A DNA stretch of 64,000 bases from an uncultured bacterium (GTDB lineage: Bacteria; Edwardsbacteria; AC1; EtOH8): positions 909,046 through 973,045 of the forward strand of contig CALMGM010000005.1 in NCBI GenBank assembly GCA_937863685.1, in the 5' to 3' direction. The position numbers and the translations under genes are program-made. Under the pieces are notes generated by a model that was not told the origin of the DNA, made no database searches, and saw nothing but the letters and a program-made list of their open reading frames with translations. The stretch's first letter is position 1; each line of letters starts with the position of its first letter. Below are positions 2,106-51,230 of this stretch, piece by piece.

Positions 2106-3362
2106 TTAATTCCCTTCCGATTGCGATGCCGGTGGTTTGTTTTTGCTTAAAATATCCAGGCATTCCGTTTCTTCGGTCACCTGGTTGCCGGTGTACATCA
2201 AGCCCGCCATCATCACCAGGCTGGAGACCAGGATCACGAAGAACAGCACGCCCTCGCCGAACCGCTTAAGCACGAATTGCTGGGGAATGCTGTAATAAAG
2301 GATGATGGTGATCAGTCCGCGGGGGGCGATGAATAATTCCGGAAACAGGCTGGTCTTGGCGATGTATTTAAGATGAAAATAGCGGACCGAGAAGATCATT
2401 ACCATTATCAGACTGCCCAGCAGGATAATCTCCAGGTTAAGCAGATAGGCCAGGTGGATGGAGTAGCCGAACAGCACGAAGAAGAAAGTCCGGATGACAA
2501 AAGCCGACTCCGAAGTGATCAGCTTTAATTGCCGGAGCTCGTAGGTCAGCTTGTACGGGTTCAGATATTTCTTGATGGGGCCCCGGACGATCAGATAAAC
2601 GTTGCTGATGGTCAGGCCGAACACCAGTATCAACAGCAGGGATGAAAGGTGAAACAGCTCTCCCAGGGAATACACCAAAAACAGGATGGAGAGCAGCAGG
2701 AAGAATTTATTGTGTCCGGCGATCTTGTCAATGAACAGCAGCAGCAGCAGGGAGCAGACCACCGAGATGAGCGAGATGACGGTCAGGTTGCCGACAAAGG
2801 AGAAGACCGAAGCAGCCGACCACAGGCTTTTCTGAATGGCGAAATTGAAGATCATGATGCCGATGATATCCGAAAAGGTGGCCTCATAAACCATGAACTC
2901 TTTTTTATCGGGGCTCAGGTTGCAGACCGAGGGGATCACTATGGCGCTGCTGATGACGGCCATGGGGACTGCGTTTACAAAGCAACTTTGGAAAGGAGCG
3001 TTCAGCACCAGTTTTATCACCAGGGCTATCAGCAGGGATGATGCCACGAAGATCAGGACCGCCGAGGCCATCGATTTTCTTATCACCGGCAGCTTCTCCC
3101 GGCTGAGGTTGAGTTCCAGAGTGGCTTCCAGCACGATCAGGATCACTCCGATGATGCCGAACAGCTCCAGATATATTCGGGAATTGAGGAAGGCTATATT
3201 CAGAGAGCTACCGACAAAACGCAGGATGATCCCCACGGTCAATAGCAGCAGGACCGAAGGGATTCTCGACTTCCGGGACATGATGTCGAACAGGTAAGAC
3301 ATTATCACCAGAAGACTCAAGGAAATGATCAGCGAATATGAAAGCAATCCCGGATGATCCAT
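2106..3362 (-). CDS. Cation:proton antiporter (CPA1/NhaP-like) membrane protein
   Basis: 418 aa polytopic hydrophobic protein with Na+/H+ exchanger-like TM pattern. Confidence 0.55.
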   Translation of the reverse strand: MDHPGLLSYSLIISLSLLVIMSYLFDIMSRKSRIPSVLLLLTVGIILRFVGSSLNIAFLNSRIYLELFGIIGVILIVLEATLELNLSREKLPVIRKSMASAVLIFVASSLLIALVIKLVLNAPFQSCFVNAVPMAVISSAIVIPSVCNLSPDKKEFMVYEATFSDIIGIMIFNFAIQKSLWSAASVFSFVGNLTVISLISVVCSLLLLLFIDKIAGHNKFFLLLSILFLVYSLGELFHLSSLLLILVFGLTISNVYLIVRGPIKKYLNPYKLTYELRQLKLITSESAFVIRTFFFVLFGYSIHLAYLLNLEIILLGSLIMVMIFSVRYFHLKYIAKTSLFPELFIAPRGLITIILYYSIPQQFVLKRFGEGVLFFVILVSSLVMMAGLMYTGNQVTEETECLDILSKNKPPASQSEGN

Positions 3363-3455
3363 AGATTAACCCAGATAATGATGATTAGTGTGTTGTTCAA
3401 TAGGAATTATCTTATATATCCGGAACGAAGTCAATCCAAATGATAGGGGCTGTTT

Positions 3456-4916
3456 TTACAGAACCAGCCAGGACAGCAGGATCACTAAAATGAATACCGT
3501 GAATACCGCACCGTAGGAGATGGAGAGGAGATTCAATTTGATAAAGGTGGGCCAAAAGCCCTGCTGATAGAATCTTCTCATGCTCAAGTAAAGGTATAGC
3601 GGAATGGTCATGATCAGCAGACTCAGCCACTGGCTGAGCACTGGGATATGGAAAAAGCGGGTGGAGGTGATAACCAGAATGGTCAAAAACACAAAGGCGT
3701 GAAAATGAATTGAGAATATCAGGTGCTGCATGTAATAGCGTCCGGAGCGGATGTAGAGCAATTTCAGCAGCAGGGCGAACAGCGGCATCAGCAGGAACAT
3801 GCTCTGGGCGAACCGCTCGATAAGCGTCTCCACGAACAGTTCGGGATTTTTGGTTCCGCGGCGGTATCCTTCCTCGACCATCTTGGTAAAGCGGTGGTCG
3901 AAGCTTAAGGTATCCTCTTGGGCGACATTGATGTCTTGCCCGGTTATTGGCTCGGAACCATTATCCGTAGCTTTGATTTCAATTCTTGTTTCGGGCTCCT
4001 CCTGAAGCTCCTCCAGATGGGAGCGCTTGCTGGTCATGGCCAGCAGCAAAAACAACACGAAACTGATGATTACGTAGGTTCTTAAGGGCGGGACGTAGCG
4101 CACTCTCCGGCCGGCTATATAATCGGCGGTAAGGAAACCCGGTTTGGTGATCAGCGGGGCCAGGGTGTGAATGAAGCGCGAGTCGATCCGCAGTTCATCC
4201 CACAGGAATTCGTGCAGCAGCTCCTTGAAGGGGACATTGATGTCGGTGTTCTTCTGGCCGCAGTCGTGGCAGTATTTGCCGTGCAACAATGCTCCGCAAT
4301 TTAGGCAGTTATCCGGCAGAGCATGATGAATCCTCGATTTGCGGGGAACAAAAAAACCGGTGGTTTCCTTATAATTCAAATATTCCTCGCCCAGCTGCAG
4401 TTCCAGTTCCTTCTCCTCGATGCGGCACAGCAGATAAAAGGCGGGGATCCACAACAAGGAGAACAGTATCAGGAAGGGAGAATTCAGTATCAAGGCGGCC
4501 ACCAAGGGGAGAGCCATCTTGCCCAGGGCCTGGGGATGGCGGATCTTTTGATAGATCCCGCGGGCGGAGGCCCGGCGGTCCTTTACGGCAATGCTCTCCG
4601 GTCCGGCGTCGATCATCCCCCTTATCCAAATGACGATGGAGGGAAGGCCGATGATGATAGCGGCAGCCAGAGAGAACCAGCGATTCCAAAGAAATTCGGC
4701 AGGGATGAATTTGAAGGCCGGGAAAGCCTTATACAGCAGGTAGCTGATGAAATGCAAAACCAAAGACGCCGCCGATATGATCCTGAAAATAACGGACCGC
4801 AGTTCGGTTCGGCCTTCTGGGGCCAAGGCTTGGATAGATCCGGCGACGCTGCGATATCCGAAGAACAGATACAGCCCGGCGGAAAGGAACATTAATATAA
4901 GGATAAACCAGGACAT
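3456..4916 (-). CDS. Membrane fusion protein: ICMT/PEMT-like methyltransferase domain + zinc ribbon + DUF3667-like membrane domain
   Basis: RHPQALG...EEKELELQLGEEYLNYKETTGFF methyltransferase motif; CLNCGALLHGKYCHDCGQ zinc ribbon; C-terminal polytopic region resembling DUF3667. Confidence 0.5.
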   Translation of the reverse strand: MSWFILILMFLSAGLYLFFGYRSVAGSIQALAPEGRTELRSVIFRIISAASLVLHFISYLLYKAFPAFKFIPAEFLWNRWFSLAAAIIIGLPSIVIWIRGMIDAGPESIAVKDRRASARGIYQKIRHPQALGKMALPLVAALILNSPFLILFSLLWIPAFYLLCRIEEKELELQLGEEYLNYKETTGFFVPRKSRIHHALPDNCLNCGALLHGKYCHDCGQKNTDINVPFKELLHEFLWDELRIDSRFIHTLAPLITKPGFLTADYIAGRRVRYVPPLRTYVIISFVLFLLLAMTSKRSHLEELQEEPETRIEIKATDNGSEPITGQDINVAQEDTLSFDHRFTKMVEEGYRRGTKNPELFVETLIERFAQSMFLLMPLFALLLKLLYIRSGRYYMQHLIFSIHFHAFVFLTILVITSTRFFHIPVLSQWLSLLIMTIPLYLYLSMRRFYQQGFWPTFIKLNLLSISYGAVFTVFILVILLSWLVL

Positions 4917-7127: not shown

Positions 7128-8339
7128 ATGCTGATAATTATAAAAATACTGCTGATATTTGCCCTGATAATATTCCTGCTATGGCGCAAGTGGCCGCTGG
7201 GCCCGGTGATGCTTCTGGCCTCGCTTTTCCTGGGTCTTTTATTCAAAATGTCGCCGGGAGATATGGGACAGAGCGCCCTGCGGGCGGCCCTGGAGTTTGA
7301 GACCACCGTATACCTGGTCATCGTCCTCTACCTGATAGCCATTCTGGAGAATCTGCTGCGGACCGGCGGCCTGCTGGCCAGGATGGTCGGCGCTTTAAAG
7401 GTGCTGTTCCGCGACCACCGGCTGGTGGCCTCCTTCATGCCGGCCTTCATCGGATTCCTGCCCTCGGCCGGGGGCGCCATGTTCTCGGCCCCTCTGGTGA
7501 GGGAGGCCACCGGCCACATGGACCTGTCACCCGGCCGGAAGACCTTCATCAACTACTGGTACCGCCATATCTGGGAGGCGGTGTTCCCGCTGTATCCCGG
7601 CCTGCTGCTGGCGGCGGTGCTGGCCGGTCGGCCGGCGGCCGACCTGATATACCGGCAATGGCCCTATACTTTAGGCGCCATCGTCATAGGCTGGCTGGTG
7701 GGCTGGCGCGGGGTGAAGAAGGATGTTTGGGACCAGGCGGCCGATTATAAAAAGGCCTGGAGGGACGTCCTGCTGACCATGTCCCCGGTGCTGTTCGTGA
7801 TAATATCGGTGCTGGCCTTCAAATTCGACCTGGCTCTTATGACCGCCCTGGCGGTGGCGGGCCTGGCCATCGGCCTGAAATACCCAATGAGAAAGATCCC
7901 CGGCCTGCTGTGGGATTCCTTCAAGCCGATGACCCTGCTGTTGATCGTCGGGGTGATGGTCTTCAAGGGGATGCTGGAGACCAGCGGGGCCATAGCGGCC
8001 CTGCCGGGGATCCTTCTGGGCGGCGGGGTGCCCAAGGTGCTCATAATATCCCTTTTGCCGTTCATGGTGGGCCTGTTGACCGGCATCAGCCAGGGATATG
8101 TGGCGGTGGCCTTCCCCCTGCTGCTGGGAATATTTGGGTCTCCGACAGGATCGCTCAACTGGTATGTTTTGGCGTTTGTGGCCGGTCTGGGCGGGGTGCT
8201 GATCTCCCCCAGCCATCTGTGCCTGGCTTTGACCAGGGAATATTTTGAGGCCAACTGGGGCCAGGTATACCGCTACCTGCTGCCGGCCTCGATGGGGTTG
8301 ATGCTACTGGGGTTTTTGTTGTATTATTGGTGGCGGTAA
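7128..8339 (+). CDS. Polytopic membrane protein, DUF401-like putative permease
   Basis: 403 aa, about 10-12 TM helices, N-terminal MLIIIKILLIFALIIFLLW; family call tentative. Confidence 0.45.
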   Translation: MLIIIKILLIFALIIFLLWRKWPLGPVMLLASLFLGLLFKMSPGDMGQSALRAALEFETTVYLVIVLYLIAILENLLRTGGLLARMVGALKVLFRDHRLVASFMPAFIGFLPSAGGAMFSAPLVREATGHMDLSPGRKTFINYWYRHIWEAVFPLYPGLLLAAVLAGRPAADLIYRQWPYTLGAIVIGWLVGWRGVKKDVWDQAADYKKAWRDVLLTMSPVLFVIISVLAFKFDLALMTALAVAGLAIGLKYPMRKIPGLLWDSFKPMTLLLIVGVMVFKGMLETSGAIAALPGILLGGGVPKVLIISLLPFMVGLLTGISQGYVAVAFPLLLGIFGSPTGSLNWYVLAFVAGLGGVLISPSHLCLALTREYFEANWGQVYRYLLPASMGLMLLGFLLYYWWR

Positions 8340-8468
8340 GGCAACGAAAAATGGCAGGCGATATAGAAATATCAAGAACCTTTAGAACATTCAAACACAA
8401 AGCATGAATAATAATTGAAGCAACAACCAAGCTTAAAAACCCTAAAAAAGCAATGATTTTTCAAACCG

Positions 8469-8494
8469 TCTCCATGACGGTTTTTTTATTTTAA
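8469..8494 (+). terminator. Rho-independent terminator (aaccgtc-tccat-gacggtt + T7)
   Basis: 7-bp GC-containing stem followed by TTTTTTT, 130 nt after stop of 7128-8339. Confidence 0.6.
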
Positions 8495-8575
8495 GGGAAC
8501 CGAAAATGAGGCAATGTTATCTAAATCTGCATAACCCCTTAAAAGCAAGACAATTATAATTAATCAGAGGGAAAT

Positions 8576-10588
8576 ATGTCAAAAAGATCATTGCTGTTGT
8601 TTCTGCTTCTGCCGGCCCTGGCCTGGTCCCAGGGAATAACCTGGGGCGACCGGGTGCGGGTGGACGATGCCCTGGGAAGCGGCCCCCATCAGGCCATTCA
8701 TCCCTACACCATCATCGACGACAGCCTGGCCGACAACCCCAGGGTCTATACCGTCTGGGAGGACGACCGGGACGGCAACGGGCGACATGCCATCTATTTT
8801 GCCAAGTCCACCGACCTGGCGGCCAGCTACTCCCGGCCCAATGTGGTGGTCTGCAACGACAGCCTGGACAACATCTATCCCTGGATGGTCAAAGGCGCGT
8901 CGGGAGCCATCTACATTGCCTGGCAGGTCAGATATCCCGATACCTTCTGGAGGGTATACCTGTCGAAATCAACCGATGGCGGAGACACTTTCAGCCCGCC
9001 GGATACCATCCGGGGCCCGGCCATTGTCAACGACAAGACCGACAATAATAATTTCGGCCCCCTGCCCAGGATCGCGGTGGATCCCGCCGACAGCATCCTC
9101 TATCTGGTCTGGACCGAGGCCGCCGGGGCACTGGCCACCAAGGTCCGCTGTTCCCGCTCCCTGTCCAAGGATGCCGATTTTTCGGGAATGGTGCTGGTCA
9201 ACGTGGACTCCGCGAGAGCCGCCAAGCACCCGGCCATCGTCTGCGATGACAACGGCCGGGTCTTCGTGACCTACGAGCGGAGCGACGGCGGCAACACCAA
9301 CGACCCGCAGTGCGACATCTACTTCAACCAATCCGACAACTACGGGCTGAGTTTCGGAGCTACGGAGCTGCTGATCAACGACAACGGCGATGTCAGTCGG
9401 ATGCAGAACCCCACCATCGACCGGATAAACGGCAAGACCATGGTCATCTGGGAGGATACCCGGATGCCCCCGGCCGCCAGCAACCAGTGCCCCCAGCTTT
9501 TCTTCAGCCAGAAACACGACACCGCTTCCCAGTTCATCCCCAACGTCCGGGTAAGCGACACCCTGTCCGGCGACTGGAACTTCCGGCCCCGGATGGCCAT
9601 CGACCAGACCACCGGCAACATGATTGTGGCCTGGCACTCCAACGTCGACACCACCGACGCCAAGTTCGAACTGCGGCTTTGCGCCTTCAACGATACCATA
9701 AATGAGTTCACTCCGTCCTACAAGATGTTCGACACCTACACCGGAAACAGCGGGGCCAACTTCGGCAATATCTTCTACCCGCCGGCGGTGGCCATCACCA
9801 ACATCGACTCGGTAGCCAACTTCTTCCTGGTGTGGCGGGACCTGATCGAGGACACCACCGGCAATATCTATTCCCGGCACGGCCACGTGGTGGTCAGCCG
9901 GGTGGACCTGGACATCTTTCCCGATGCCCTGGATGCGCACGGCGACAGCCTGAACTTCGGGATCCTGCCGGCAGGCCCGGCCTGGGTCTCCCGCAGTTTT
10001 CGCATCGTCAACACCCGTGATTCGCTCAATCCCGATTCCCTGGACGGTCCCAGCACAACTGTGATCGATTCTCTGACCGCCAACGGGATCACCTTGCACA
10101 ATGTCTCGAATTCTTCGCTGACCCTGAAGGCCGGGTTCATCGAATCACCAGCGGCCTTCCCGGACCTGAACATCGGCCAGACCCTGGACGTGACCGTCAC
10201 CCTGTACGTGCCGGAGGGCACCCCGGCCGGGCGCTACGTGGGCTACGCCAAGCTGAGAGCGGTGGGCAGCGACCTGACAGTGGACAGCGATTCCATCCGG
10301 ATAGTGGTGCAGGGCCCGACGGCCACGGCCGACCTGGAGAGCCTGAGGGTCTTTCCCAACCCCTTCAAATACTGGCTGGGGCACCGGACGGTGAACTTCG
10401 AGGGGCTGACCCCGGCGGCCACCCTGAAGATCTACGACATCAAGGGCCGGCTGCTGGCCACCATCGACGAAAACAACGGCGACGGCCTGGCCACCTGGAC
10501 CCCTAAAGCCGCCAGCGGGGTCTACCTGTGGTCGGTAAGCAATCCCCAGGGGCAGAAGAAGACCGGCAAGATAGCAATATTGAGATGA
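8576..10588 (+). CDS. Secreted BNR-repeat (sialidase-like beta-propeller) protein with type IX secretion C-terminal sorting domain
   Basis: Signal peptide; BNR motifs SKSTDGGDTFS, NQSDNYGLSF; C-terminal RVFPNPFKY...LKIYDIKGRLLATI...SGVYLWSVS...KIAILR = Por_Secre_tail pattern. Confidence 0.7.
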   Translation: MSKRSLLLFLLLPALAWSQGITWGDRVRVDDALGSGPHQAIHPYTIIDDSLADNPRVYTVWEDDRDGNGRHAIYFAKSTDLAASYSRPNVVVCNDSLDNIYPWMVKGASGAIYIAWQVRYPDTFWRVYLSKSTDGGDTFSPPDTIRGPAIVNDKTDNNNFGPLPRIAVDPADSILYLVWTEAAGALATKVRCSRSLSKDADFSGMVLVNVDSARAAKHPAIVCDDNGRVFVTYERSDGGNTNDPQCDIYFNQSDNYGLSFGATELLINDNGDVSRMQNPTIDRINGKTMVIWEDTRMPPAASNQCPQLFFSQKHDTASQFIPNVRVSDTLSGDWNFRPRMAIDQTTGNMIVAWHSNVDTTDAKFELRLCAFNDTINEFTPSYKMFDTYTGNSGANFGNIFYPPAVAITNIDSVANFFLVWRDLIEDTTGNIYSRHGHVVVSRVDLDIFPDALDAHGDSLNFGILPAGPAWVSRSFRIVNTRDSLNPDSLDGPSTTVIDSLTANGITLHNVSNSSLTLKAGFIESPAAFPDLNIGQTLDVTVTLYVPEGTPAGRYVGYAKLRAVGSDLTVDSDSIRIVVQGPTATADLESLRVFPNPFKYWLGHRTVNFEGLTPAATLKIYDIKGRLLATIDENNGDGLATWTPKAASGVYLWSVSNPQGQKKTGKIAILR

Positions 10589-14447: not shown

Positions 14448-14497
14448 CCTCACCCCAACCCTCTCCTGATAAATCAGGAGAGGGAGAATTAAAAGCG

Positions 14498-14529
14498 AAG
14501 AAGCCGTGGCGTTATGCCACGGCTTTTTG
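14498..14529. terminator. Palindromic hairpin family copy 1 (aagccgtggc-gttat-gccacggctt + T5)
   Basis: 10-bp perfect stem + T-run; preceded by second hairpin ctctcctga-taa-atcaggagag at 14461-14482. Confidence 0.6.
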
Positions 14530-14558
14530 TTGCATAAGGGATCAAATGCCTGTATAAT
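14530..14558 (+). promoter_or_regulatory. Putative promoter TTGCAT-N17-TATAAT directly abutting hairpin copy 1; start codon 7 nt after -10 (possible leaderless mRNA)
   Basis: ttgcat 14530-14535, tataat 14553-14558, ATG 14566. Confidence 0.4.
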
Positions 14559-14565
14559 CGTCAAA

Positions 14566-15663
14566 ATGACTAGAAGACTACATAGATACAAATTGCATGT
14601 GCTTTGGGATCTCTGGGGTGAAGGAAAGCGCTATTTTGCCGGGACGATACATAAGAAACGGGCCGAGGTATTGGAACTGATAGGGGAATGGTCCCGGGCG
14701 CTGGGGATCTACCGGGAGATCCTGGATGTCTATGAGGCTGCCTCACTGTCCGGACCGGCTGCGATACAGCGGGTCAATATGGGTCGGGTGATGTATAAGA
14801 TGGGTGATCATGAGGAAGCAATCGCTCTTCTGAAACAAGCGGAGGAAATTTTAAAGAAGCTTGATGAATCAAAGAACCTGTCCGACATTTACAGTCATCT
14901 TGGTAATATCCGTCTTAACCAGGCCCGATACCAAGAGGCCGAGGACCTTTTCCGGAAACGTTTGGACCTCAATGCCAGGGTCAACAATGCTGTGGTATTT
15001 TGCGCCACCTACGGGAATCTGGGGAACCTGGAATATGCCAGGGGCCAGTTGGAAAAGTCCGAGGAATGGTATCGCCGCCAGTTGGAATCCGCCGTCCGGG
15101 AAGGTATCAAAGAGTATCAAGCCGTGGCGATAGGGGCCATGGGCTGTATTCACGCCCAGCGGGAGGAATACGATTTGGCTCTGAAAGCCTTCCAAGATTT
15201 CCTCGGATTGGCCAGAACCACCGGCGATACCGGAAAAATAAGAGTGGCCTTAGGCAACATCGGCAACTACCATATCCAGTTTGGGCAGTATGCGGAGGCC
15301 AGGGAAATATATCGTCAGCAGTTGGCTCTGGCCGAACGGATGGGAGAAAAAAAGGGGATCTGTCTGGCGTGGGGCAATCTGGCCAAGGCCAGCCATCGTC
15401 TGGGCCAGGAACAGCGGGCCCGGGAAGAGATCCTGTCGGCAATTGCCATCGGAGAGAAGATGGGGCTAAAATATTTCCTGCCCGAGCAATACCTGCTTCT
15501 GGCCGAAGTTCGTCTGGCTTTGAATCTGTTTCCCGAGGCAAAGGGAGCCGCTTTGCGAGCCCGGGAACTGGCAATAGAGAACGGCGACCCGGACGATGAA
15601 AAAAGCGCCCAGGAGCTGCTGGACGCAATTTCAGCGAAGCTGATTAAGCAATCCGGCGGATAG
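14566..15663 (+). CDS. TPR-repeat protein
   Basis: Multiple 34-aa TPR-like repeats (A..Y...G.....A); start moved downstream of hairpin. Confidence 0.6.
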   Translation: MTRRLHRYKLHVLWDLWGEGKRYFAGTIHKKRAEVLELIGEWSRALGIYREILDVYEAASLSGPAAIQRVNMGRVMYKMGDHEEAIALLKQAEEILKKLDESKNLSDIYSHLGNIRLNQARYQEAEDLFRKRLDLNARVNNAVVFCATYGNLGNLEYARGQLEKSEEWYRRQLESAVREGIKEYQAVAIGAMGCIHAQREEYDLALKAFQDFLGLARTTGDTGKIRVALGNIGNYHIQFGQYAEAREIYRQQLALAERMGEKKGICLAWGNLAKASHRLGQEQRAREEILSAIAIGEKMGLKYFLPEQYLLLAEVRLALNLFPEAKGAALRARELAIENGDPDDEKSAQELLDAISAKLIKQSGG

Positions 15664-15710
15664 AATGTTAAAAAGCGGTGCAAAGACCGCAGCATAGATG
15701 ATAATAAAAA

Positions 15711-15742
15711 AGAAAGCCGTGGCTTTATGCCACGGCTTCTTG
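15711..15742. terminator. Palindromic hairpin family copy 2 (bidirectional, between convergent genes)
   Basis: agaaagccgtggc-tttat-gccacggcttct. Confidence 0.6.
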
Positions 15743-15756
15743 GGGTTAAATGTGCT

Positions 15757-16392
15757 TTATTGTTTTGGGAACCCCCAACTTAACCAAGATACATATTGAT
15801 CACGCAGCACTTCAGCAATATCAAATATTTCGTCGGCTTGTGCTGTTGTAACTTTAAGGCCATGTACTGCAGCATTGCACCAATTAATTATATATACAAG
15901 AAGATCCGCTTGTCTATAAGTGATAGCTGAATTCTCTTTTAGTTTTCGAACAATAATATTTGCACTATCGCGGTTATTTATTTGAACTTTAAAGCCTTTT
16001 GCAAGATTCTTTAATAAAGTTTCAAATTCAATGCGTAAACCAGCTAAAGCAATTGTTGGGTCTTGTTCGATAAGGTTACGATAAAAAGATAACTCTAATC
16101 CAGAAGGGGATGGGGATAGTCCTAGATTTAACATACGGGCATTAGCTTCTGTTAAAGGAATCGTAGCTGTTGCTTTTTTCTCACCCTCTTTTTTAACCAC
16201 CGAAGATAACGCTTTGGCTTCTTTGATTTCTTCGGGGAACGTTTCAATTGATACGCCACCCGGTAAGTCCGCTTTTTTCACGCGCTTGATCAATAAAACG
16301 ATTTCTTCTCTAAAAGAGATAACTAAAAGAAAAGTTACTAATGGCCAAATAATAGCCTTAATATATTCGAGTATTAATTTTGCAACATCCAT
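15757..16392 (-). CDS. Membrane-anchored DUF4145 (HEPN-like) domain protein; AT-rich
   Basis: One N-terminal TM helix; C-terminal block ANIIVRKLKENSAITYRQADLLVYIINWCNAAVHG...AEVLRDQY resembles DUF4145 (R..GN.AAH core); GC far below flanks. Confidence 0.45.
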   Translation of the reverse strand: MDVAKLILEYIKAIIWPLVTFLLVISFREEIVLLIKRVKKADLPGGVSIETFPEEIKEAKALSSVVKKEGEKKATATIPLTEANARMLNLGLSPSPSGLELSFYRNLIEQDPTIALAGLRIEFETLLKNLAKGFKVQINNRDSANIIVRKLKENSAITYRQADLLVYIINWCNAAVHGLKVTTAQADEIFDIAEVLRDQYVSWLSWGFPKQ

Positions 16393-16483
16393 GATTTATT
16401 CCACGCTGTTCAATTATTTTAACATGTAACAATAGTGGCATTGTAGTAAATAATATCAACTATGTCAAGTATAATATTATCTT

Positions 16484-16513
16484 AAGAAGCCGTGGCTTAT
16501 GCCACGGCTTCTT
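16484..16513. terminator. Palindromic hairpin family copy 3 (13-bp perfect stem aagaagccgtggc/gccacggcttctt, loop ttat)
   Basis: Read directly. Confidence 0.6.
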
Positions 16514-16545
16514 GCGGCCGCATCTTGCTACTGTGTCTGCATTAT

Positions 16546-17034
16546 TTATAGATTTGTAGTTTCCAAGATCCTTTTAAGGTTCTCCCCCTCTTCTTTCATG
16601 TGTTTTTCTACAGAAGCTATTCCGCTTGCCAGCTTATTTTTTGCAAAGGTTTTAACCAGTCGTCCAACCCTAAAAGACCCCAGGGCTGTGAAAATACATC
16701 CATTTTGCGTCGGTTCGATAATAAATGTATTCTTGGGGTAATATATTCTTAACAGCCAAAATGAGGGCACATATTCAATAGTTCTATTGGGAATTACTTT
16801 TGTAACGCGAAATGTCAAGGTATGCAGTTCGCCTTTAAGATATTCTTTGGCGCGAAGCACAGAGCCTTCTTGCCAAGGCTTTCCCTTGATCCAACAAAAC
16901 TCAATATGGTCCTGGGGATGCCAGAGCTTATAGTTTTGATCATCTGTAATGCCGGTCAGGAAATTAAAAACCGCCTCGGGGCTGGCCTTAATTTCTATCG
17001 AATCTTTTAGAATGATATCTTCCAATATCCTCAT
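16546..17034 (-). CDS. SRPBCC (START/Bet v1-like) domain protein; AT-rich
   Basis: 162 aa with polyketide-cyclase/SRPBCC-like pattern; low GC. Confidence 0.5.
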   Translation of the reverse strand: MRILEDIILKDSIEIKASPEAVFNFLTGITDDQNYKLWHPQDHIEFCWIKGKPWQEGSVLRAKEYLKGELHTLTFRVTKVIPNRTIEYVPSFWLLRIYYPKNTFIIEPTQNGCIFTALGSFRVGRLVKTFAKNKLASGIASVEKHMKEEGENLKRILETTNL

Positions 17035-17134
17035 GTATTTGATCTCCTATATCGGCAATAAGGTCATCAATGTGTATTAGTAATAATAGATAGTACAACG
17101 TTATTTGTCAAGATAAATAGAGAATATTGCATTA

Positions 17135-17165
17135 AAGAAGCCGTGGCGTAACGCCACGGCTTCTT
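17135..17165. terminator. Palindromic hairpin family copy 4 (14-bp stem, loop taa)
   Basis: aagaagccgtggcg-taa-cgccacggcttctt. Confidence 0.6.
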
Positions 17166-17204
17166 GCGTCCCTTCCCTTATTGGGGAAGGGATTGAGGGT
17201 TAGG

Positions 17205-17642
17205 TCAAAACAGCTTCTTATACTCCCCGTAACCTTCCTTCTCCAGCTCCTCCACCGTGATGAACCTCAGCGAAGCCGAGTTTATGCAGTAGCGTAGGCC
17301 GGTGGGCCGGGGGCCGTCGTCGAATACATGCCCCAGGTGGGAATCGCCGGTCTTGCTGCGAACCTCGGTCCGGACCGTGTTGTGGCTGGTATCCCTCTTC
17401 TCCAGGATCAGGGTAGTGTCCAAAGGCTTGAAAAAACTGGGCCAGCCGCAGCCTGATTCGAACTTATCCCTGGAACTGAACAACGGCTGGCCGGTGGTGA
17501 TGTCCACGTAAATGCCCTCACGCTTCTCGTTCCAGTATTTGTTCAGGAAGGGCGGCTCGGTGGCGCTCTTCTGGGTGACCTGATATTGCAAGGGAGTCAA
17601 CCGCTTTTTAAGTTCCGGATCCCCGGCTTTGGTGTATTTCAT
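17205..17642 (-). CDS. msrB: Peptide-methionine (R)-S-oxide reductase MsrB
   Basis: CGWPSF and [11 protein letters not shown] catalytic motifs, [10 protein letters not shown]. Confidence 0.9.
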
Positions 17643-17788
17643 TTAAGAAGCCCGATAAAATTATTGCTGTTGATATATATTAATGTAACACGTTTTTGAA
17701 ATAAATCAAGAGGCTGGTGAAAATGTCATTGAATATTGGTTTTTTCAGTGGTAATATAAATGTGTAAACTTTCAAAAAGGAGTTTGCC

Positions 17789-18433
17789 ATGTTGAAGAAA
17801 ATACTTTTATCGTTGCTCGCAGTGGGAATCATCGCGGTTATCGCCATTGCGATATTTATCTTCTTTGCCATGAAGGGTCCTGATCTTTCCAAATACCAAT
17901 ATCTGAAGGACCCGCAGATCTCGGAAAAACCAAATCAGAAAATGCTGGTGGTGGAGGCCAGGGGCGACCCCAATATCGTGGGGGCCAAGGCTTTTGCCCT
18001 GCTGGTCAAGGTTTATTTCAAAACGGTAAAAGGCGGCAAGATGCAGATCCCCCGGGCCCGCTGGCCGCAGGACCTGGGCACCAGTCTGGACGAATGGGTG
18101 GGGCAATATGCCCTGCCGGTCCCGGAGACCACCGAAAAACTGCCCGAGATCAAGCACGAACCGGGATTTAAGATAACTTTATCCGGATGGGAATACGGCA
18201 CGGTGGCCGAGATCCTGCATATCGGGCCGTATAACAAGGAAACGCCGGCCATCGAAAGGCTCAAAAAGTACGCCCATGACAACGGTTATTACATAACCGG
18301 CCTGCACGAGGAGGAATATTTAAAGGGGCCGGGGATGTTCGGCCCGGGCGATTCGGGAAAGTATCAGACCATCATACGGTACCGGGTGGAGAAAACGGCG
18401 ATCGAAGATACTAAAGAAACGAAAAAGAAATAA
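17789..18433 (+). CDS. Membrane-anchored GyrI-like small-molecule-binding domain protein
   Basis: N-terminal TM; EYGTVAEILHIGPYNKETPAIERLKKYAHDNGY GyrI-like motif. Confidence 0.5.
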   Translation: MLKKILLSLLAVGIIAVIAIAIFIFFAMKGPDLSKYQYLKDPQISEKPNQKMLVVEARGDPNIVGAKAFALLVKVYFKTVKGGKMQIPRARWPQDLGTSLDEWVGQYALPVPETTEKLPEIKHEPGFKITLSGWEYGTVAEILHIGPYNKETPAIERLKKYAHDNGYYITGLHEEEYLKGPGMFGPGDSGKYQTIIRYRVEKTAIEDTKETKKK

Positions 18434-18442
18434 ATATAATTT

Positions 18443-18790
18443 ATGCTCAACATTCAGATATTCGGAACCAATAAATGCCGGGACACCCGGGCCGCCCAGC
18501 GCTTTTTCAAGGAGCGCCGGGTGGCTGTCCATTTCATCGATCTAAGCGAAAAACCCCTCAGCCGGGGGGAGCTGAACAGCATCAGAAGCGCAGTAGGCCT
18601 GGAGAATCTGATTGACACCGAAGGGAAGGAATATCAGAGACAGAATCTCAAGTATCAAAAATACGATATAGAGCAGGTCCTGCTGGATAATCCCGGGCTG
18701 CTCAAAACGCCCATCGTCCGCTTTGGCCCCAAAGCCACGCTAGGATACCAACCGGATGTTTGGAGAAAATGGCTGGAGGCGCCCCAATAA
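18443..18790 (+). CDS. ArsC/Spx-family (YffB-like) thioredoxin-fold protein
   Basis: IFGTNKCRDTRAAQRFF...LLKTPIV...TLGYQP pattern of ArsC/Spx/YffB family. Confidence 0.6.
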   Translation: MLNIQIFGTNKCRDTRAAQRFFKERRVAVHFIDLSEKPLSRGELNSIRSAVGLENLIDTEGKEYQRQNLKYQKYDIEQVLLDNPGLLKTPIVRFGPKATLGYQPDVWRKWLEAPQ

Positions 18791-18885
18791 TAAATCCAGA
18801 AACCTTCATTTAGCTATTGATATTACCGCCGAATGTTACTATAATATACCCGTTTATGAATTTATTTTAATCAAAGGCCGGAGAG

Positions 18886-19740
18886 ATGGTAAAATACAAG
18901 GAAAGAAACATTTTCCGGGTCAAGGATACCAGGATAGATGTTAAGCCCATAAAAAAGCTGAAACTATACGGCTTCAACAACCTGACCAAGACCCTCAGTT
19001 TCAACATGTACGATGTCTGCTACGCCAAGGGGACCAAATACGGCGGGGATTACATCAAGTACATCGACGAGGAATACAACGCCGCCCGGCTGACCAAGAT
19101 CCTCAAGGAAGTGTCATCCATCATCGGGGCCAAGGTGCTGAATATCGCCCAGCAGGACTACGACCCCCAGGGGGCCAGCGTCACAATGCTGATCTCGGAA
19201 CAGCACATGCAGGTCGAACACCCCGATTTTCCGGACGGCCAGGCCGAGAATCTTCATTCCGAAGCGGTGGTGGGACATCTGGACAAGAGCCATATCACGG
19301 TGCACACCTATCCCGAGAGCCATCCCCACAACAACATCAGCACCTTCCGGGCCGATATCGACGTCTCCACCTGCGGGATCATCTCCCCGCTGAAGGCCCT
19401 GAACTACCTGCTGGACGCTTTTTATTCCGATATTGCGGTGATCGACTACCGGGTGCGGGGTTTCACCCGGGATGTGGGCGGCCGGAAATATTTCATCGAC
19501 CACAAGATAAACTCCATCCAGAATTACCTCTACAAGGAGGTGGACAAGGATTACCAATTGATAGACACCAACGTCTACCAAGAGAACCTGTTCCACACCA
19601 AAATGATGCTCAAAGATTTCAGCATCGATGATTACATCTTCGGCTCCGGCCCCAAAAAACTCCGGACTCGCGACAAGGTGAACATCAAAAAAATGCTGCA
19701 CAAGGAGATGGCGGAGATATTCTTCAGGGAGAACATATAA
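18886..19740 (+). CDS. speD: S-adenosylmethionine decarboxylase proenzyme (class I, SpeD type)
   Basis: [25 protein letters not shown]...[12 protein letters not shown]...[20 protein letters not shown] closely parallels E. coli SpeD. Confidence 0.85.
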
Positions 19741-19746
19741 AAAACC

Positions 19747-19776
19747 AAAGCCGTGGCTTAAAAGCCACGGCTTTTT
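19747..19776. terminator. Palindromic hairpin family copy 5 (bidirectional between speD and feoAB)
   Basis: aaagccgtggctt-aa-aagccacggcttttt. Confidence 0.6.
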
Positions 19777-27647: not shown

Positions 27648-28001
27648 ATGAAAGAACCTAAATTCACAGAATTGCTGGTCTGGAAAAAGGCCCACCTGTT
27701 AGCATTGGAAATCTATAAAGTAACATCAAAGCTTCCCAAAGAGGAAATGTTCGGTCTATCATCACAAATGAGACGGGCCTCGCTTTCGGTGGCGGCAAAT
27801 ATAGCCGAGGGATGCAAAAAATCAAAGCCAGATTTTCGCCGATATTTAAAAATATCCGAGGGCTCACTGGAGGAGTTAAAATATTACTTTATCGTTTCTC
27901 GGGATCTCGGCTATATAGACGATGAAAAGCATTCGGGCTTTATCACTAGTGCTAATGAGGTTGGGTTTTTATTACATCGTCTTTGGTCCAGTCTTGGTTA
28001 A
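27648..28001 (+). CDS. Four-helix-bundle protein (23S rRNA intervening-sequence protein / Avd-like family), copy 1
   Basis: LLVWKKAHLLALEIYKVTSKLPKEEMFGLSSQMRRASLSVAANIAEGC...GSL.EL..YF pattern of TIGR02436; lower GC than flanks. Confidence 0.8.
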   Translation: MKEPKFTELLVWKKAHLLALEIYKVTSKLPKEEMFGLSSQMRRASLSVAANIAEGCKKSKPDFRRYLKISEGSLEELKYYFIVSRDLGYIDDEKHSGFITSANEVGFLLHRLWSSLG

Positions 28002-31181: not shown

Positions 31182-31553
31182 ATGAACAATACAAAAAGCT
31201 TCTCCGATCTGATAGTATGGCAAAAGTCGTACAAATTATGCGTTGAGGTCTATAAAGTATCCAAGGAGTTTCCCAGCCAGGAAAACTTCGGTTTGATCTC
31301 ACAAATTAGAAGGTGTTCGGTTTCTATTCCCTCAAATATAGCCGAAGGCTATGCTCGCAAAAACCGCAAGGAATACATTCAATTTTTATATATGGCAAAC
31401 GGATCGCTGGCGGAACTGCAGACACAATTGATGCTTTCGAAAGATATTGGTTATTTAAATGAAAATATTTATAATGTTTTATATTCTTTGTCACAGGAAG
31501 TCGGCAGAATGCTCTGGAAAATGATAGTTGGCTTGAGACAAAAGGAACCTTAA
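31182..31553 (+). CDS. Four-helix-bundle protein (23S rRNA intervening-sequence protein / Avd-like family), copy 2
   Basis: LIVWQKSYKLCVEVYKVSKEFPSQENFGLISQIRRCSVSIPSNIAEGYAR...GSLAELQTQL; paralogue of 27648-28001. Confidence 0.8.
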   Translation: MNNTKSFSDLIVWQKSYKLCVEVYKVSKEFPSQENFGLISQIRRCSVSIPSNIAEGYARKNRKEYIQFLYMANGSLAELQTQLMLSKDIGYLNENIYNVLYSLSQEVGRMLWKMIVGLRQKEP

Positions 31554-43345: not shown

Positions 43346-43867
43346 GTGTGTCAAAAAATGCGTGAGATCGTTTATCATAAAGTGCCTGACGAGTTGCAAG
43401 GAGATACGATATATCCTTTAAACAGACTTAAGGATATCTTTCCGGGTGTGTATCAAAAGCAAGCAGCAAAATACACAGGAAGAGAGAATTTGCTGCAAAG
43501 GAAAGTACCGATTTTAAATTGTCTGTGGAATGACGTGATCCATCTTACGGCCATAAATCCAAAAATAATATTCTCATTTTTACGACAGATAGGTTTTGAA
43601 TACCCTCTTCATGGCTTTTATGAAATAGATTTTTCCAAGTTGGATCCGGATTATTGTATAGAAATGATTTATTCCGGCGGTGAAAGGAAATACCGAAAGA
43701 TCGAATCTGACAAATTCCCCAAAGTTGAAAATTTGCCAGCAGAAACCATTGAGTATTTCAAAAGCTGCTGGAAAGAAAAAACCCACCCCCTGCTGTTCAA
43801 TGGTATCCCGCATATTCTGTATAAGGGCGCGATAAATATCAAAGGAACAGCAATAATCGAAGTTTAA
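43346..43867 (+). CDS. Hypothetical protein, AT-rich
   Basis: 173 aa, no confident family; GC far below flanks. Confidence 0.3.
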   Translation: MCQKMREIVYHKVPDELQGDTIYPLNRLKDIFPGVYQKQAAKYTGRENLLQRKVPILNCLWNDVIHLTAINPKIIFSFLRQIGFEYPLHGFYEIDFSKLDPDYCIEMIYSGGERKYRKIESDKFPKVENLPAETIEYFKSCWKEKTHPLLFNGIPHILYKGAINIKGTAIIEV

Positions 43868-50168: not shown

Positions 50169-51230
50169 ATGAATAAATATTTTATCATCCTTACAATGCT
50201 TTGTGTAACATCAGTGTTAAATGCTCAAAGCCTCGAAGACCTGGAGTCTCTTTATGGACAAGGAAAATTTAATGAGGTTATAGATAATTCAGCAAATATG
50301 CTGGCTAACGAACCAGATGACCCGATAATTAATATGTTGGTGGGAAGATCTTACGCAGATAAGATGAATTTTGAGGAAGCCATACCATATTTGAGAAAGG
50401 CAATAGAAAGCGATAGAACCAATTCATGGCCCAAAGCCTGGTCGTTAGTTTATCTGGGGTCGTGTTATTTTGCCATCGGCAACCGTGAGGAATCTATTAA
50501 ATATATCAAGGAATGTATATCGATGAATGCGACCAAGAATGTTACAAACAGTGCCTTAATTAAAAACGTGCTTTTCGGTTTCGACCAAAGTTATAATAAT
50601 TGGGAAGCAAGAGAGACGGAACATTTTGTCTTTCACTTTCAACCGCTATCGCTCAAAGATATAAATGATATTGACAAATATATTAAAATCCGGGAAATGG
50701 CTTTTATGCATATAAGTGAGTTTTTTGTCAGCAATTTGCCAAAGAAAATAGATTTTTTTATCTGGCATTCCCGAGAAGATATCAAAGCTGTTCTCAAATC
50801 AAACGGAGGTTTTGCAAAACCTGAATATTGCATTATCCATGCTTGTTTTGATCAAACTCCCGGTCATGAGATTACCCATGTCGTTTCAAATTATACAGCG
50901 ACGGTTATAAATAAAACCGTTCTAATCAACGAGGGAACAGCCGTTTACTTTGACCAAACAAGTCGCGATCAATTGGCCTTAGCTAGGAAAGCCATAAAAG
51001 AAAAAGGCTACTCAAGCATCTCTCTTAAGGAGATATGGAATAATCGTGTTATGCCGGAAGCTGTGATGTATCCGATTGGCGGCGCATTCGTAAAATACTT
51101 GATAGATACCGAAGGAAAAGACAAATATCTTGAATTATTTAAAGACCAGACATATCAAAACGGCCATAAAATATACGGCGATAAATTTGAAAAGATTGTT
51201 TCCGAATTCGAAAACAGTTTGTTTCAGTAA
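50169..51230 (+). CDS. Secreted TPR-containing protein with possible HExxH motif; strongly AT-rich
   Basis: Signal peptide MNKYFIILTMLCVTSVLNAQS; PGHEITHVV; GC about 35% vs about 60% flanks. Confidence 0.4.
   Translation: MNKYFIILTMLCVTSVLNAQSLEDLESLYGQGKFNEVIDNSANMLANEPDDPIINMLVGRSYADKMNFEEAIPYLRKAIESDRTNSWPKAWSLVYLGSCYFAIGNREESIKYIKECISMNATKNVTNSALIKNVLFGFDQSYNNWEARETEHFVFHFQPLSLKDINDIDKYIKIREMAFMHISEFFVSNLPKKIDFFIWHSREDIKAVLKSNGGFAKPEYCIIHACFDQTPGHEITHVVSNYTATVINKTVLINEGTAVYFDQTSRDQLALARKAIKEKGYSSISLKEIWNNRVMPEAVMYPIGGAFVKYLIDTEGKDKYLELFKDQTYQNGHKIYGDKFEKIVSEFENSLFQ

Follow-up and report, generated by a model that had tools for sequence, protein, structure and literature searches.

The question raised by this locus is whether two neighbouring genes of unusually low G+C content (GC) represent a mobile defence cassette that has recently entered a bacterial chromosome. 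The genes lie within a 64,000-nucleotide stretch of an uncultured bacterium of the Edwardsbacteria lineage (contig CALMGM010000005.1), called the window below, and encode a membrane-anchored protein with a HEPN-like domain (gene 1) and an SRPBCC protein (gene 2). In a first reading of the letters alone (the original prediction), both were described as recent horizontal acquisitions in a cassette-like context, with gene 1 as a candidate phage-defence or toxin effector. Overall, the evidence leans towards gene 1 being a horizontally acquired, self-contained accessory gene of the WP-TM / DUF4145 family, the product of which would work as a stand-alone membrane-tethered effector or sensor. The answer is different for gene 2 and for the hairpins that surround the two genes.

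A database search with gene 1 gave 332 homologues of about 215 residues at 50-79% identity, from Elusimicrobia, Omnitrophota, Nitrospirota, Ignavibacteria, Planctomycetota, Nitrospinota, and other groups, and a profile search with the family gave 2,156 representatives (50% identity) at E<=1e-3. By itself, the gene 1 protein matches DUF4145 (PF13643) over residues 106-193 with an E-value of 9e-4 and 19.7 bits, below the cut-off of 23.1. However, the domain is matched by 30 of 35 aligned relatives (best E 5e-8), and PF13643 is precomputed on many homologues. Since close homologues pass, gene 1 is assigned to DUF4145 by homology, and the resemblance noticed in the original prediction, sub-threshold for the single sequence, is clear at the level of the family. 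The single N-terminal transmembrane (TM) helix that had been proposed is likewise predicted here from Kyte-Doolittle hydropathy, flanking charge, and the helix of an AlphaFold2 model; the 19-residue maximum is 2.04 at residues 7-25 and reaches at least 1.6 in 35 of 35 relatives. Lys and Arg residues are gathered on the C-terminal flank of this hydrophobic segment. Therefore, an N-out, C-in topology with a cytoplasmic HEPN domain is predicted, and the product may be described as a putative single-pass inner-membrane protein with a short N-terminus outside. Within the helix, W16 is kept in 217 of 220 relatives and P17 in 219 of 221, and the juxtamembrane linker is also conserved (ADLPGG...ETFPE, PSPSGL).

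The AlphaFold2 model, built from the alignment (pLDDT 87, pTM 0.73), consists of a long N-terminal helix (2-26), two linker helices, and a C-terminal helical bundle (102-207) with the four-helix HEPN fold. HEPN proteins listed with the model include the toxins 5yep, 8xdj, and 7ae2, TTHA0636, and the HEPN domain of sacsin, with HepS, AbiA, and Csx1 lower in the same list. Searched with a profile, the PDB sequences yielded nothing but spurious matches to polyubiquitin and Cas9, summed from domains of about 7 bits each, and these were disregarded.

The N-terminal TM helix, the Trp-Pro signature, and the C-terminal HEPN domain overlapping DUF4145 are the features of the 'bacterial membrane-associated HEPN domains' described by Anantharaman, Makarova, Burroughs, Koonin and Aravind in 2013 (PMC3710099), which combine a WP-signature TM helix with a C-terminal DUF4145-type HEPN domain predicted to be cytoplasmic. 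Gene 1 has the same architecture and is a member of this family; the likeness to the example from Vibrio cholerae (gi 153825856) is one of described architecture rather than of direct alignment. Since the architecture matches and W16/P17 are invariant, the family is already known computationally and the architecture is not new. What is added here is the family-wide loss of the canonical arginine, the AT-richness of the gene relative to its hosts, and its carriage in integron cassettes. No experimental work on the family was found in the literature.

In HEPN proteins, the signature motif lies at helix 3's end, and an Ex3[KR] motif on helix 2 (PMC3710099). Residues were counted in 235-246 aligned relatives. 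The histidine of the motif is well kept (H177 is His in 216 of 234), as is N173 (Asn in 198 of 234), and Ex3[KR] is present on helix 2, where E124 is Glu or Asp in 234 of 245 and K128 is Lys or Arg in 206 of 246; R120, one helical turn ahead of E124, is Arg in 236 of 246. The arginine itself is missing. At position 172 there are 172 Cys, 21 Ala, 16 Ser, 12 Thr, 7 Gly, and 5 Leu among 235 sequences and not one Arg. The register can be read in two ways. The canonical HEPN-like neighbour of one family member (locus L013) reads L-R-N-K-A-A-H-G against L-C-N-A-A-V-H-G in the family, which places the arginine at 172. A RAZR-like protein beside another member reads R-V-I-G-N-N-A-V-H, and its arginine, equivalent to R146 of RAZR, aligns with I169, eight residues before the histidine, a position that is Ile, Leu, or Val across the family; the HHalign comparison of the family profile with this single sequence is not significant (E 0.18) and served for the motif register only. 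No conserved Arg is found at positions 169-171 in the relatives either, position 170 being Lys or Arg in only about 43%. The Rx4-6H geometry named as a test in the original prediction is thus lacking: His177 and Asn173 are kept, and since Arg is absent at both 172 and 169 in all 235 relatives, a canonical HEPN ribonuclease (RNase) is not supported on either register.

Nevertheless, the near invariance of H177, N173, R120, E122/E124, and K/R128 argues for a functional site, which could be a non-canonical nuclease centre or a binding site. Because the arginine is missing family-wide, any catalysis would have to proceed via a non-canonical site formed by H177/N173 with R120/E124/K128; otherwise the site would only bind. 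HEPN families without the arginine are known, namely PaREP1/8, in which another basic residue may substitute, and c2405, with 'conserved H but lacks R' (PMC3710099, Table 1). As in gene 1, the His is kept and the Arg lost, and gene 1 shares with them other conserved basic residues (R120, K/R128). Compared by description, they differ from gene 1 in being archaeal soluble proteins or AbiTii fusions.

Other architectures are found in the DUF4145 defence proteins that have been characterised, namely RAZR/PD-T7-4, BxaP, and Ishtar1. RAZR/PD-T7-4 is an RNase with a zinc finger and a DUF4145 domain; it assembles on ring proteins of phages, and its R146 is essential (PMC13017515). It resembles gene 1 in being a single-gene system with a DUF4145-type HEPN domain that carries ...G-N-x-A-V-H-x-G, and a homologue adjoins one family member. 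However, it has an N-terminal Cys4 zinc ribbon where gene 1 has a TM helix, and R146, eight residues before H154, falls on the Ile/Leu/Val position; no PADLOC match to PD-T7-4 was obtained for gene 1, which is not assigned to this system. The MNT-HEPN toxins (SO_3166, PDB 5yep; 7ae2/8xdj) carry an Rx4HxY motif and are encoded beside an MNT antitoxin gene, whereas gene 1 has no such Arg, no neighbouring nucleotidyltransferase, and a membrane anchor. Since no cognate antitoxin gene adjoins gene 1, whose neighbours in the window are a convergent TPR-repeat gene and gene 2 in a separate unit, and since no neighbour recurs across the family (see below), a type II toxin-antitoxin pair was rejected.

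Sixty family loci were recovered from species-representative genomes of more than 15 phyla, in a patchy spread. At 55 of the 60, the GC of the gene falls below that of the surrounding 20 kb (mean -7.4 points, largest -22). Around about 57 family members, the open reading frames (ORFs) up to three genes away number 307 and fall into 280 clusters, and no recurrent partner gene was found among them outside Acidobacteriaceae synteny. There, the sole recurrent neighbour is an acyl-CoA dehydrogenase gene and the family gene is near host GC, and therefore this recurrence is read as vertical synteny. Annotated contexts of other members include TIR/ThsB, Pycsar, and AbiEii in one locus; GmrSD with prophage-like genes; a C5-methylase (C5-MTase) with HNH; a caspase-like protease with DUF4365; HicA on both sides; BrnT; and a RiboL-PSP-HEPN-like gene with a DUF433/DUF5615 pair. 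At the locus L008/L017 the neighbours are purely housekeeping genes. A summary scan, in which 107 unrelated neighbours were taken together and which gives family counts only, added HigB, CopG, a RAZR homologue, and a ZorD/DpdE-like helicase.

In one genome (L194), the family member lies in an array of at least twelve unidirectional small ORFs separated by repeats of about 190 nt, which begin with xxTAAC (R'') and end with GTTAxx (R'). Conservation halts exactly at these cores, which is the signature of integron attC sites. In the screen of the 60 loci, the same arrangement was found in L024 (Acidobacteriota) and L025 (Spirochaetota), and the array of the latter is headed by a divergent 411-aa tyrosine recombinase, IntI-like, with a Phage_integrase match of 1.5e-42 and a SAM-like N-domain. 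Given attC-type arrays in these three loci, the family is a recurrent integron-cassette cargo in at least three genomes. According to the references cited in one preprint (bioRxiv 10.64898/2026.03.17.712381), integron cassettes are rich in phage-defence systems; like the defence and toxin cassettes credited there to Kieffer 2025, Darracq 2025, and Getz 2025, the three members are single-ORF cassettes bounded by attC-type repeats. The copy in the window differs from these in having no attC site, its own predicted promoter, and flanking host terminators, and is not itself an integron cassette. Patchy, AT-rich relative to the host, without a fixed partner, and found in defence islets and integron cassettes, the family has the behaviour of mobile cargo of a conflict or accessory kind. 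The defence or toxin role put forward in the original prediction is plausible from these toxin-antitoxin and defence-islet contexts and the arrays in three other genomes.

The arrays cover 450-12650 in L194, the whole locus in L024, and 4100-17000 in L025, where the recombinase gene is at 2642-3877 (-). Their attC-type repeats are unusually long (about 190-235 nt), and the hosts, all metagenome-assembled genomes (MAGs), are Acidobacteriota, Spirochaetota, and one unclassified. Each attC of L025 is followed by a further stretch of about 150 nt that is also conserved, and the array there is interrupted by a DDE transposase gene (17985-19451). A weak RiboL-PSP-HEPN-like gene with the canonical LRNKAAHG lies immediately upstream of the family member in two unrelated genomes, L013 (373-1005, +), where only 3 nt separate the two genes, and L195 (5199-5879, +); possibly, canonical and Arg-less HEPN proteins are paired on occasion. 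In an Acidiferrales MAG, the gene directly upstream of the family member is RAZR/PD-T7-4-like (zinc ribbon + DUF4145; L035, 545-1189, +). Several direct repeats of 35-37 nt just upstream of the member in an Ignavibacteria MAG (L026, 9314-9671) could be a tandem or CRISPR-like array.

Within the window, both genes are intact ORFs and compositional outliers, as the original prediction had stated. Compared with the 62 long ORFs of the window, gene 1 has the lowest GC (0.358, z -2.7) and the lowest GC at third codon positions (GC3 0.25, z -3.15), and gene 2 has a GC of 0.401, a GC3 of 0.41, and z of about -2; the neighbouring hcp, TPR, msrB, and GyrI-like genes have a GC of 0.51-0.60. No other 1.28-kb stretch in the window deviates as much in tetranucleotide usage as 15757-17034 (z 4.75, correlation with the usage of the window 0.18). 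Between the start of each of the two genes and the hairpin upstream of it lies a sigma-70-like promoter close to the consensus, and gene 1, with its own predicted promoter and its own predicted terminator, appears to be an autonomous transcription unit. The coordinates of all features are given in the table.

Features of the locus in the window (positions count from the first nucleotide of the window; TM, transmembrane)
Feature	Position	Strand	Remark
Composite module after hcp: hairpin CCCTCTCCTGAT/ATCAGGAGAGGG, then H1	14459..14528	.	
TPR-repeat gene	14506..15663	+	convergent with gene 1; absent from the SRPBCC-hcp junction of L004; true start probably ATG at 14566
H2, predicted intrinsic terminator of gene 1, between convergent gene 1 and TPR gene	15711..15741	.	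minus-strand U-tract
Gene 1, WP-TM / DUF4145 (HEPN-fold) family member	15757..16392	-	211 aa; all family-invariant residues kept
Cytoplasmic (predicted) HEPN-fold, DUF4145-like domain, aa 102-207	15772..16089	-	R120, E122, E124-x3-K128, N129 on helix 2
Degenerate HEPN motif C172-N-A-A-V-H177-G, end of helix 3	15859..15879	-	His and Asn conserved, arginine absent
Predicted N-terminal hydrophobic helix LILEYIKAIIWPLVTFLLVISF, aa 6-27, WP signature W16/P17	16312..16377	-	hydropathy, flanking charges
Sigma-70-like promoter of gene 1, TTGACA-17-TACAAT	16440..16468	-	11/12 consensus matches; consensus match only
H3, 36 nt downstream of the SRPBCC stop	16484..16513	.	position of the single L004 hairpin
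Gene 2, SRPBCC (Polyketide_cyc2) protein	16546..17034	-	162 aa; low GC
Sigma-70-like promoter of gene 2, TTGACA-17-TATTAT	17083..17111	-	consensus match only
H4 (17135-17165) and second hairpin CCCTTCCC-N6-GGGAAGGG (17170-17191), composite 3' module of msrB	17135..17191	.	fold -42.5 kcal/mol
H5, predicted bidirectional terminator between AdoMet_dc and feoB	19747..19774	.	orthologous copy in a Candidatus Edwardsbacteria MAG

A protein that clusters with the FeoB of the window carries the annotation Candidatus Edwardsbacteria. Comparison with a related genome (L004) separates the histories of the two genes. The gene order is GyrI-like, msrB, hairpin H4, SRPBCC, H3, gene 1, H2, TPR, H1, hcp in the window and GyrI-like, msrAB, small ORF, peptidase S9, SRPBCC, hairpin, hcp in L004. 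Gene 1 and the TPR gene are both absent from the syntenic SRPBCC-hcp junction of L004; that is, they are extra in the window or were lost in L004. Insertion is the better reading for gene 1 because of its composition, the behaviour of its family, and its cluster at 90% identity, of which it is the single member. The second gene does encode an SRPBCC protein, as had been predicted (Pfam Polyketide_cyc2, 36.9 bits against a cut-off of 27.4, E 5.4e-9, residues 9-151). It is syntenic and 89.5% identical between the window and L004, with a GC of 0.40 in both, and the flanking genes are 86.7% (hcp), 78.5% (msrB), 75.7% (cupin), and 68.3% (GyrI-like) identical. The SRPBCC gene therefore predates the split between the two genomes, and the proposed recent acquisition, which gains support for gene 1, is unsupported for gene 2; the latter appears from the comparison to be an old resident of the lineage, functionally unlinked to gene 1. 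A third genome (L192, a Candidatus Edwardsbacteria MAG) keeps feoB, the hairpin, and AdoMet_dc and then diverges, and thus the hcp-feoB interval is variable in gene content. Two further differences concern the msr side of the locus: msrB stands alone in the window (17205-17642), whereas msrA and msrB are fused in L004 (6071-7114), and the small membrane ORF and the peptidase S9/DLH gene (8049-9959) between msrAB and SRPBCC in L004 are missing from the window.

Genes 1 and 2 are AT-rich neighbours on one strand, and it might therefore be supposed that they form a unit, namely a two-gene system of an effector with a ligand-binding sensor or immunity protein. This is very improbable and already contradicted: a hairpin and a separate promoter lie between the genes, L004 has the SRPBCC gene without gene 1, following a peptidase gene there, and neither SRPBCC nor another partner recurs beside the members in about 57 family loci. 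An operon of the two genes was likewise considered and rejected. That the genes are bracketed by hairpins is correct (copies at 15714, 16487, and 17138), and a somewhat less remote but still improbable alternative takes these hairpins as cassette-type recombination sites at which gene 1 and the SRPBCC gene were captured as two mobile cassettes. The palindrome AAGCCGTGGC-N4-6-GCCACGGCTT occurs in five near-identical copies in the 64 kb (14501, 15714, 16487, 17138, and 19748; none expected from shuffled sequence), all within the 5.3 kb of 14501-19773, an interval of variable gene content. Moreover, the single hairpin of L004 corresponds in position to both H1 and H3, as if it had been duplicated around the TPR-gene 1 segment, and family members are true integron cassettes in other genomes. 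However, the hairpins have perfect stems of 13-15 bp with loops of 4-6 nt, and the attC cores (R''/R', RYYYAAC/GTTRRRY) were not found in them; no integrase, transposase, or recombinase was found among the neighbouring ORFs scanned in the window; no hairpin of this type flanks the family members in 21 other loci scanned; and the SRPBCC gene is vertically shared. On the short perfect stems, the missing cores, and the lack of an integrase among the scanned ORFs, attC sites in the window were rejected.

The hairpins look instead like transcription terminators. All five fold stably (-20 to -27 kcal/mol; H2 as RNA -20.6 kcal/mol, z -6.5). H1, H2, and H5 pass an intrinsic-terminator scan with proper U-tracts, and H3 and H4 have stable stems with interrupted U-tracts. 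H5 and the hairpin between SRPBCC and hcp have orthologues in related genomes with the same stems and different loops, and a two-hairpin composite module follows hcp and msrB in the window and hcp in L004. The hairpins are therefore predicted to be terminator palindromes specific to the host lineage, orthologous in two related genomes, which bound the variable hcp-feoB interval, and not recombination sites of cassettes. A metagenome scan for the hairpin gave at least 120 matches, mostly single-copy and from unrelated samples, a number that chance reuse of such a 10-nt stem could explain and that is hence uninformative on a mobile element. No Rfam family was found in the window.

The copies in the relatives are at 10528-10552 and about 7727-7755 in L004 and at 12065-12092 in L192. 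The palindrome family has an identical stem of 10-13 nt (AAGAAGCCGTGGC) with variable loops and flanks, so that the stem sequence itself is conserved and not only its pairing. The two hairpins to which the single L004 copy corresponds, H1 and H3, flank the TPR-gene 1 insertion.

For gene 1 as an acquired, self-contained effector or sensor, a possible mode of action can be described as follows. The product may be a stand-alone membrane-tethered effector that responds to stress or infection. A signal at the membrane or envelope would alter its oligomeric state, and the HEPN-like domain would then act on RNA at the inner membrane face, by binding or by cleavage. Both steps, the activation by a membrane signal and the action on RNA, are proposed because of the HEPN precedent RAZR (PMC13017515) and of the 2013 prediction of stimulus-dependent RNA degradation (PMC3710099). 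Within this picture, a catalytic and a binding-only mode appear roughly evenly split. A rival, for which the case is weaker and which we consider rather unlikely, is that the domain is catalytically dead and the product a non-toxic membrane-anchored regulator or sensor whose ligand would be an RNA, a nucleotide, or another protein, as has been suggested for MtlR and for HEPN domains of the sacsin type, and which would modulate a host process without killing or arrest. Against it stand the almost invariant residues described above, which map to the usual active-site region, the precedent of PaREP1/8 for a substitute basic residue, and the integron-cassette and toxin-antitoxin or defence-islet contexts, which favour a function in conflict.

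Several observations weigh against an effector of conflict. RNase activity is doubtful since the arginine is essential in characterised HEPN RNases and yet absent family-wide. With PADLOC, neither gene 1 nor gene 2 matched a model significantly, the sole match of gene 1 being PDC-M16A (E 0.0025), and no family relative was found in the phage, plasmid, and IMG/VR collections searched. The stable synteny in Acidobacteriaceae looks more like a housekeeping or regulatory role, and an identity of 50-79% over the whole length across phyla is more than fast-evolving defence genes usually show and hints that the protein has a cellular partner that is conserved. Finally, the enrichment of defence neighbourhoods was judged by eye from eight annotated contexts and the summary counts, without a control.

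Taken by itself, gene 1 is a credible but not very unusual accessory or defence-type gene; its kind is known, though uncharacterised, and it is not a new kind of system. The family is large, highly conserved, and spread over many phyla, and was described computationally in 2013; the loss of the arginine with a near-invariant His/Asn/Arg/Glu set, the carriage in integrons, and the placement in defence islets sharpen what experiment should address, namely whether its members are non-canonical RNases or binding-only sensors. For the window, the gain is mainly one of annotation: an SRPBCC gene of older standing has next to it a single recent accessory insertion, and host terminators delimit the variable interval in which both lie. 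A more far-reaching and quite speculative proposal, to which we give only a small chance, joins these strands. The WP-TM/DUF4145 proteins would be a widespread single-gene immunity or stress module carried by integrons, in which the WP helix could sense that the envelope is perturbed, for instance by injection of a phage genome or by damage from holins or to the membrane, and the signal could activate the arginine-less site formed by H177/N173 with R120/E124/K128. If true, this would mean that HEPN has a further catalytic variant and a mode of sensing that is new. As a separate possibility, the host terminator palindromes duplicated around the inserted genes might be traces of a terminator-targeted integration of foreign DNA.

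Other low-GC ORFs are scattered over the window. Two small ones at 27648-28001 and 31182-31553 (GC 0.41 and 0.37) encode four-helix-bundle proteins of the '23S rRNA intervening sequence protein'/bAvd-like type (Pfam E 5.6e-35 and 2.1e-42), and a bAvd-like ORF in the related Edwardsbacteria MAG (L192, 528-899) adjoins NfeD/Band_7 genes. A 173-aa ORF at 43346-43867 has a GC of 0.375 and no Pfam match. The second most deviant stretch of the window is an ORF at 50169-51230 (GC 0.365) with TPR repeats and a weak match to Peptidase_MA_2, which is probably another acquired gene.

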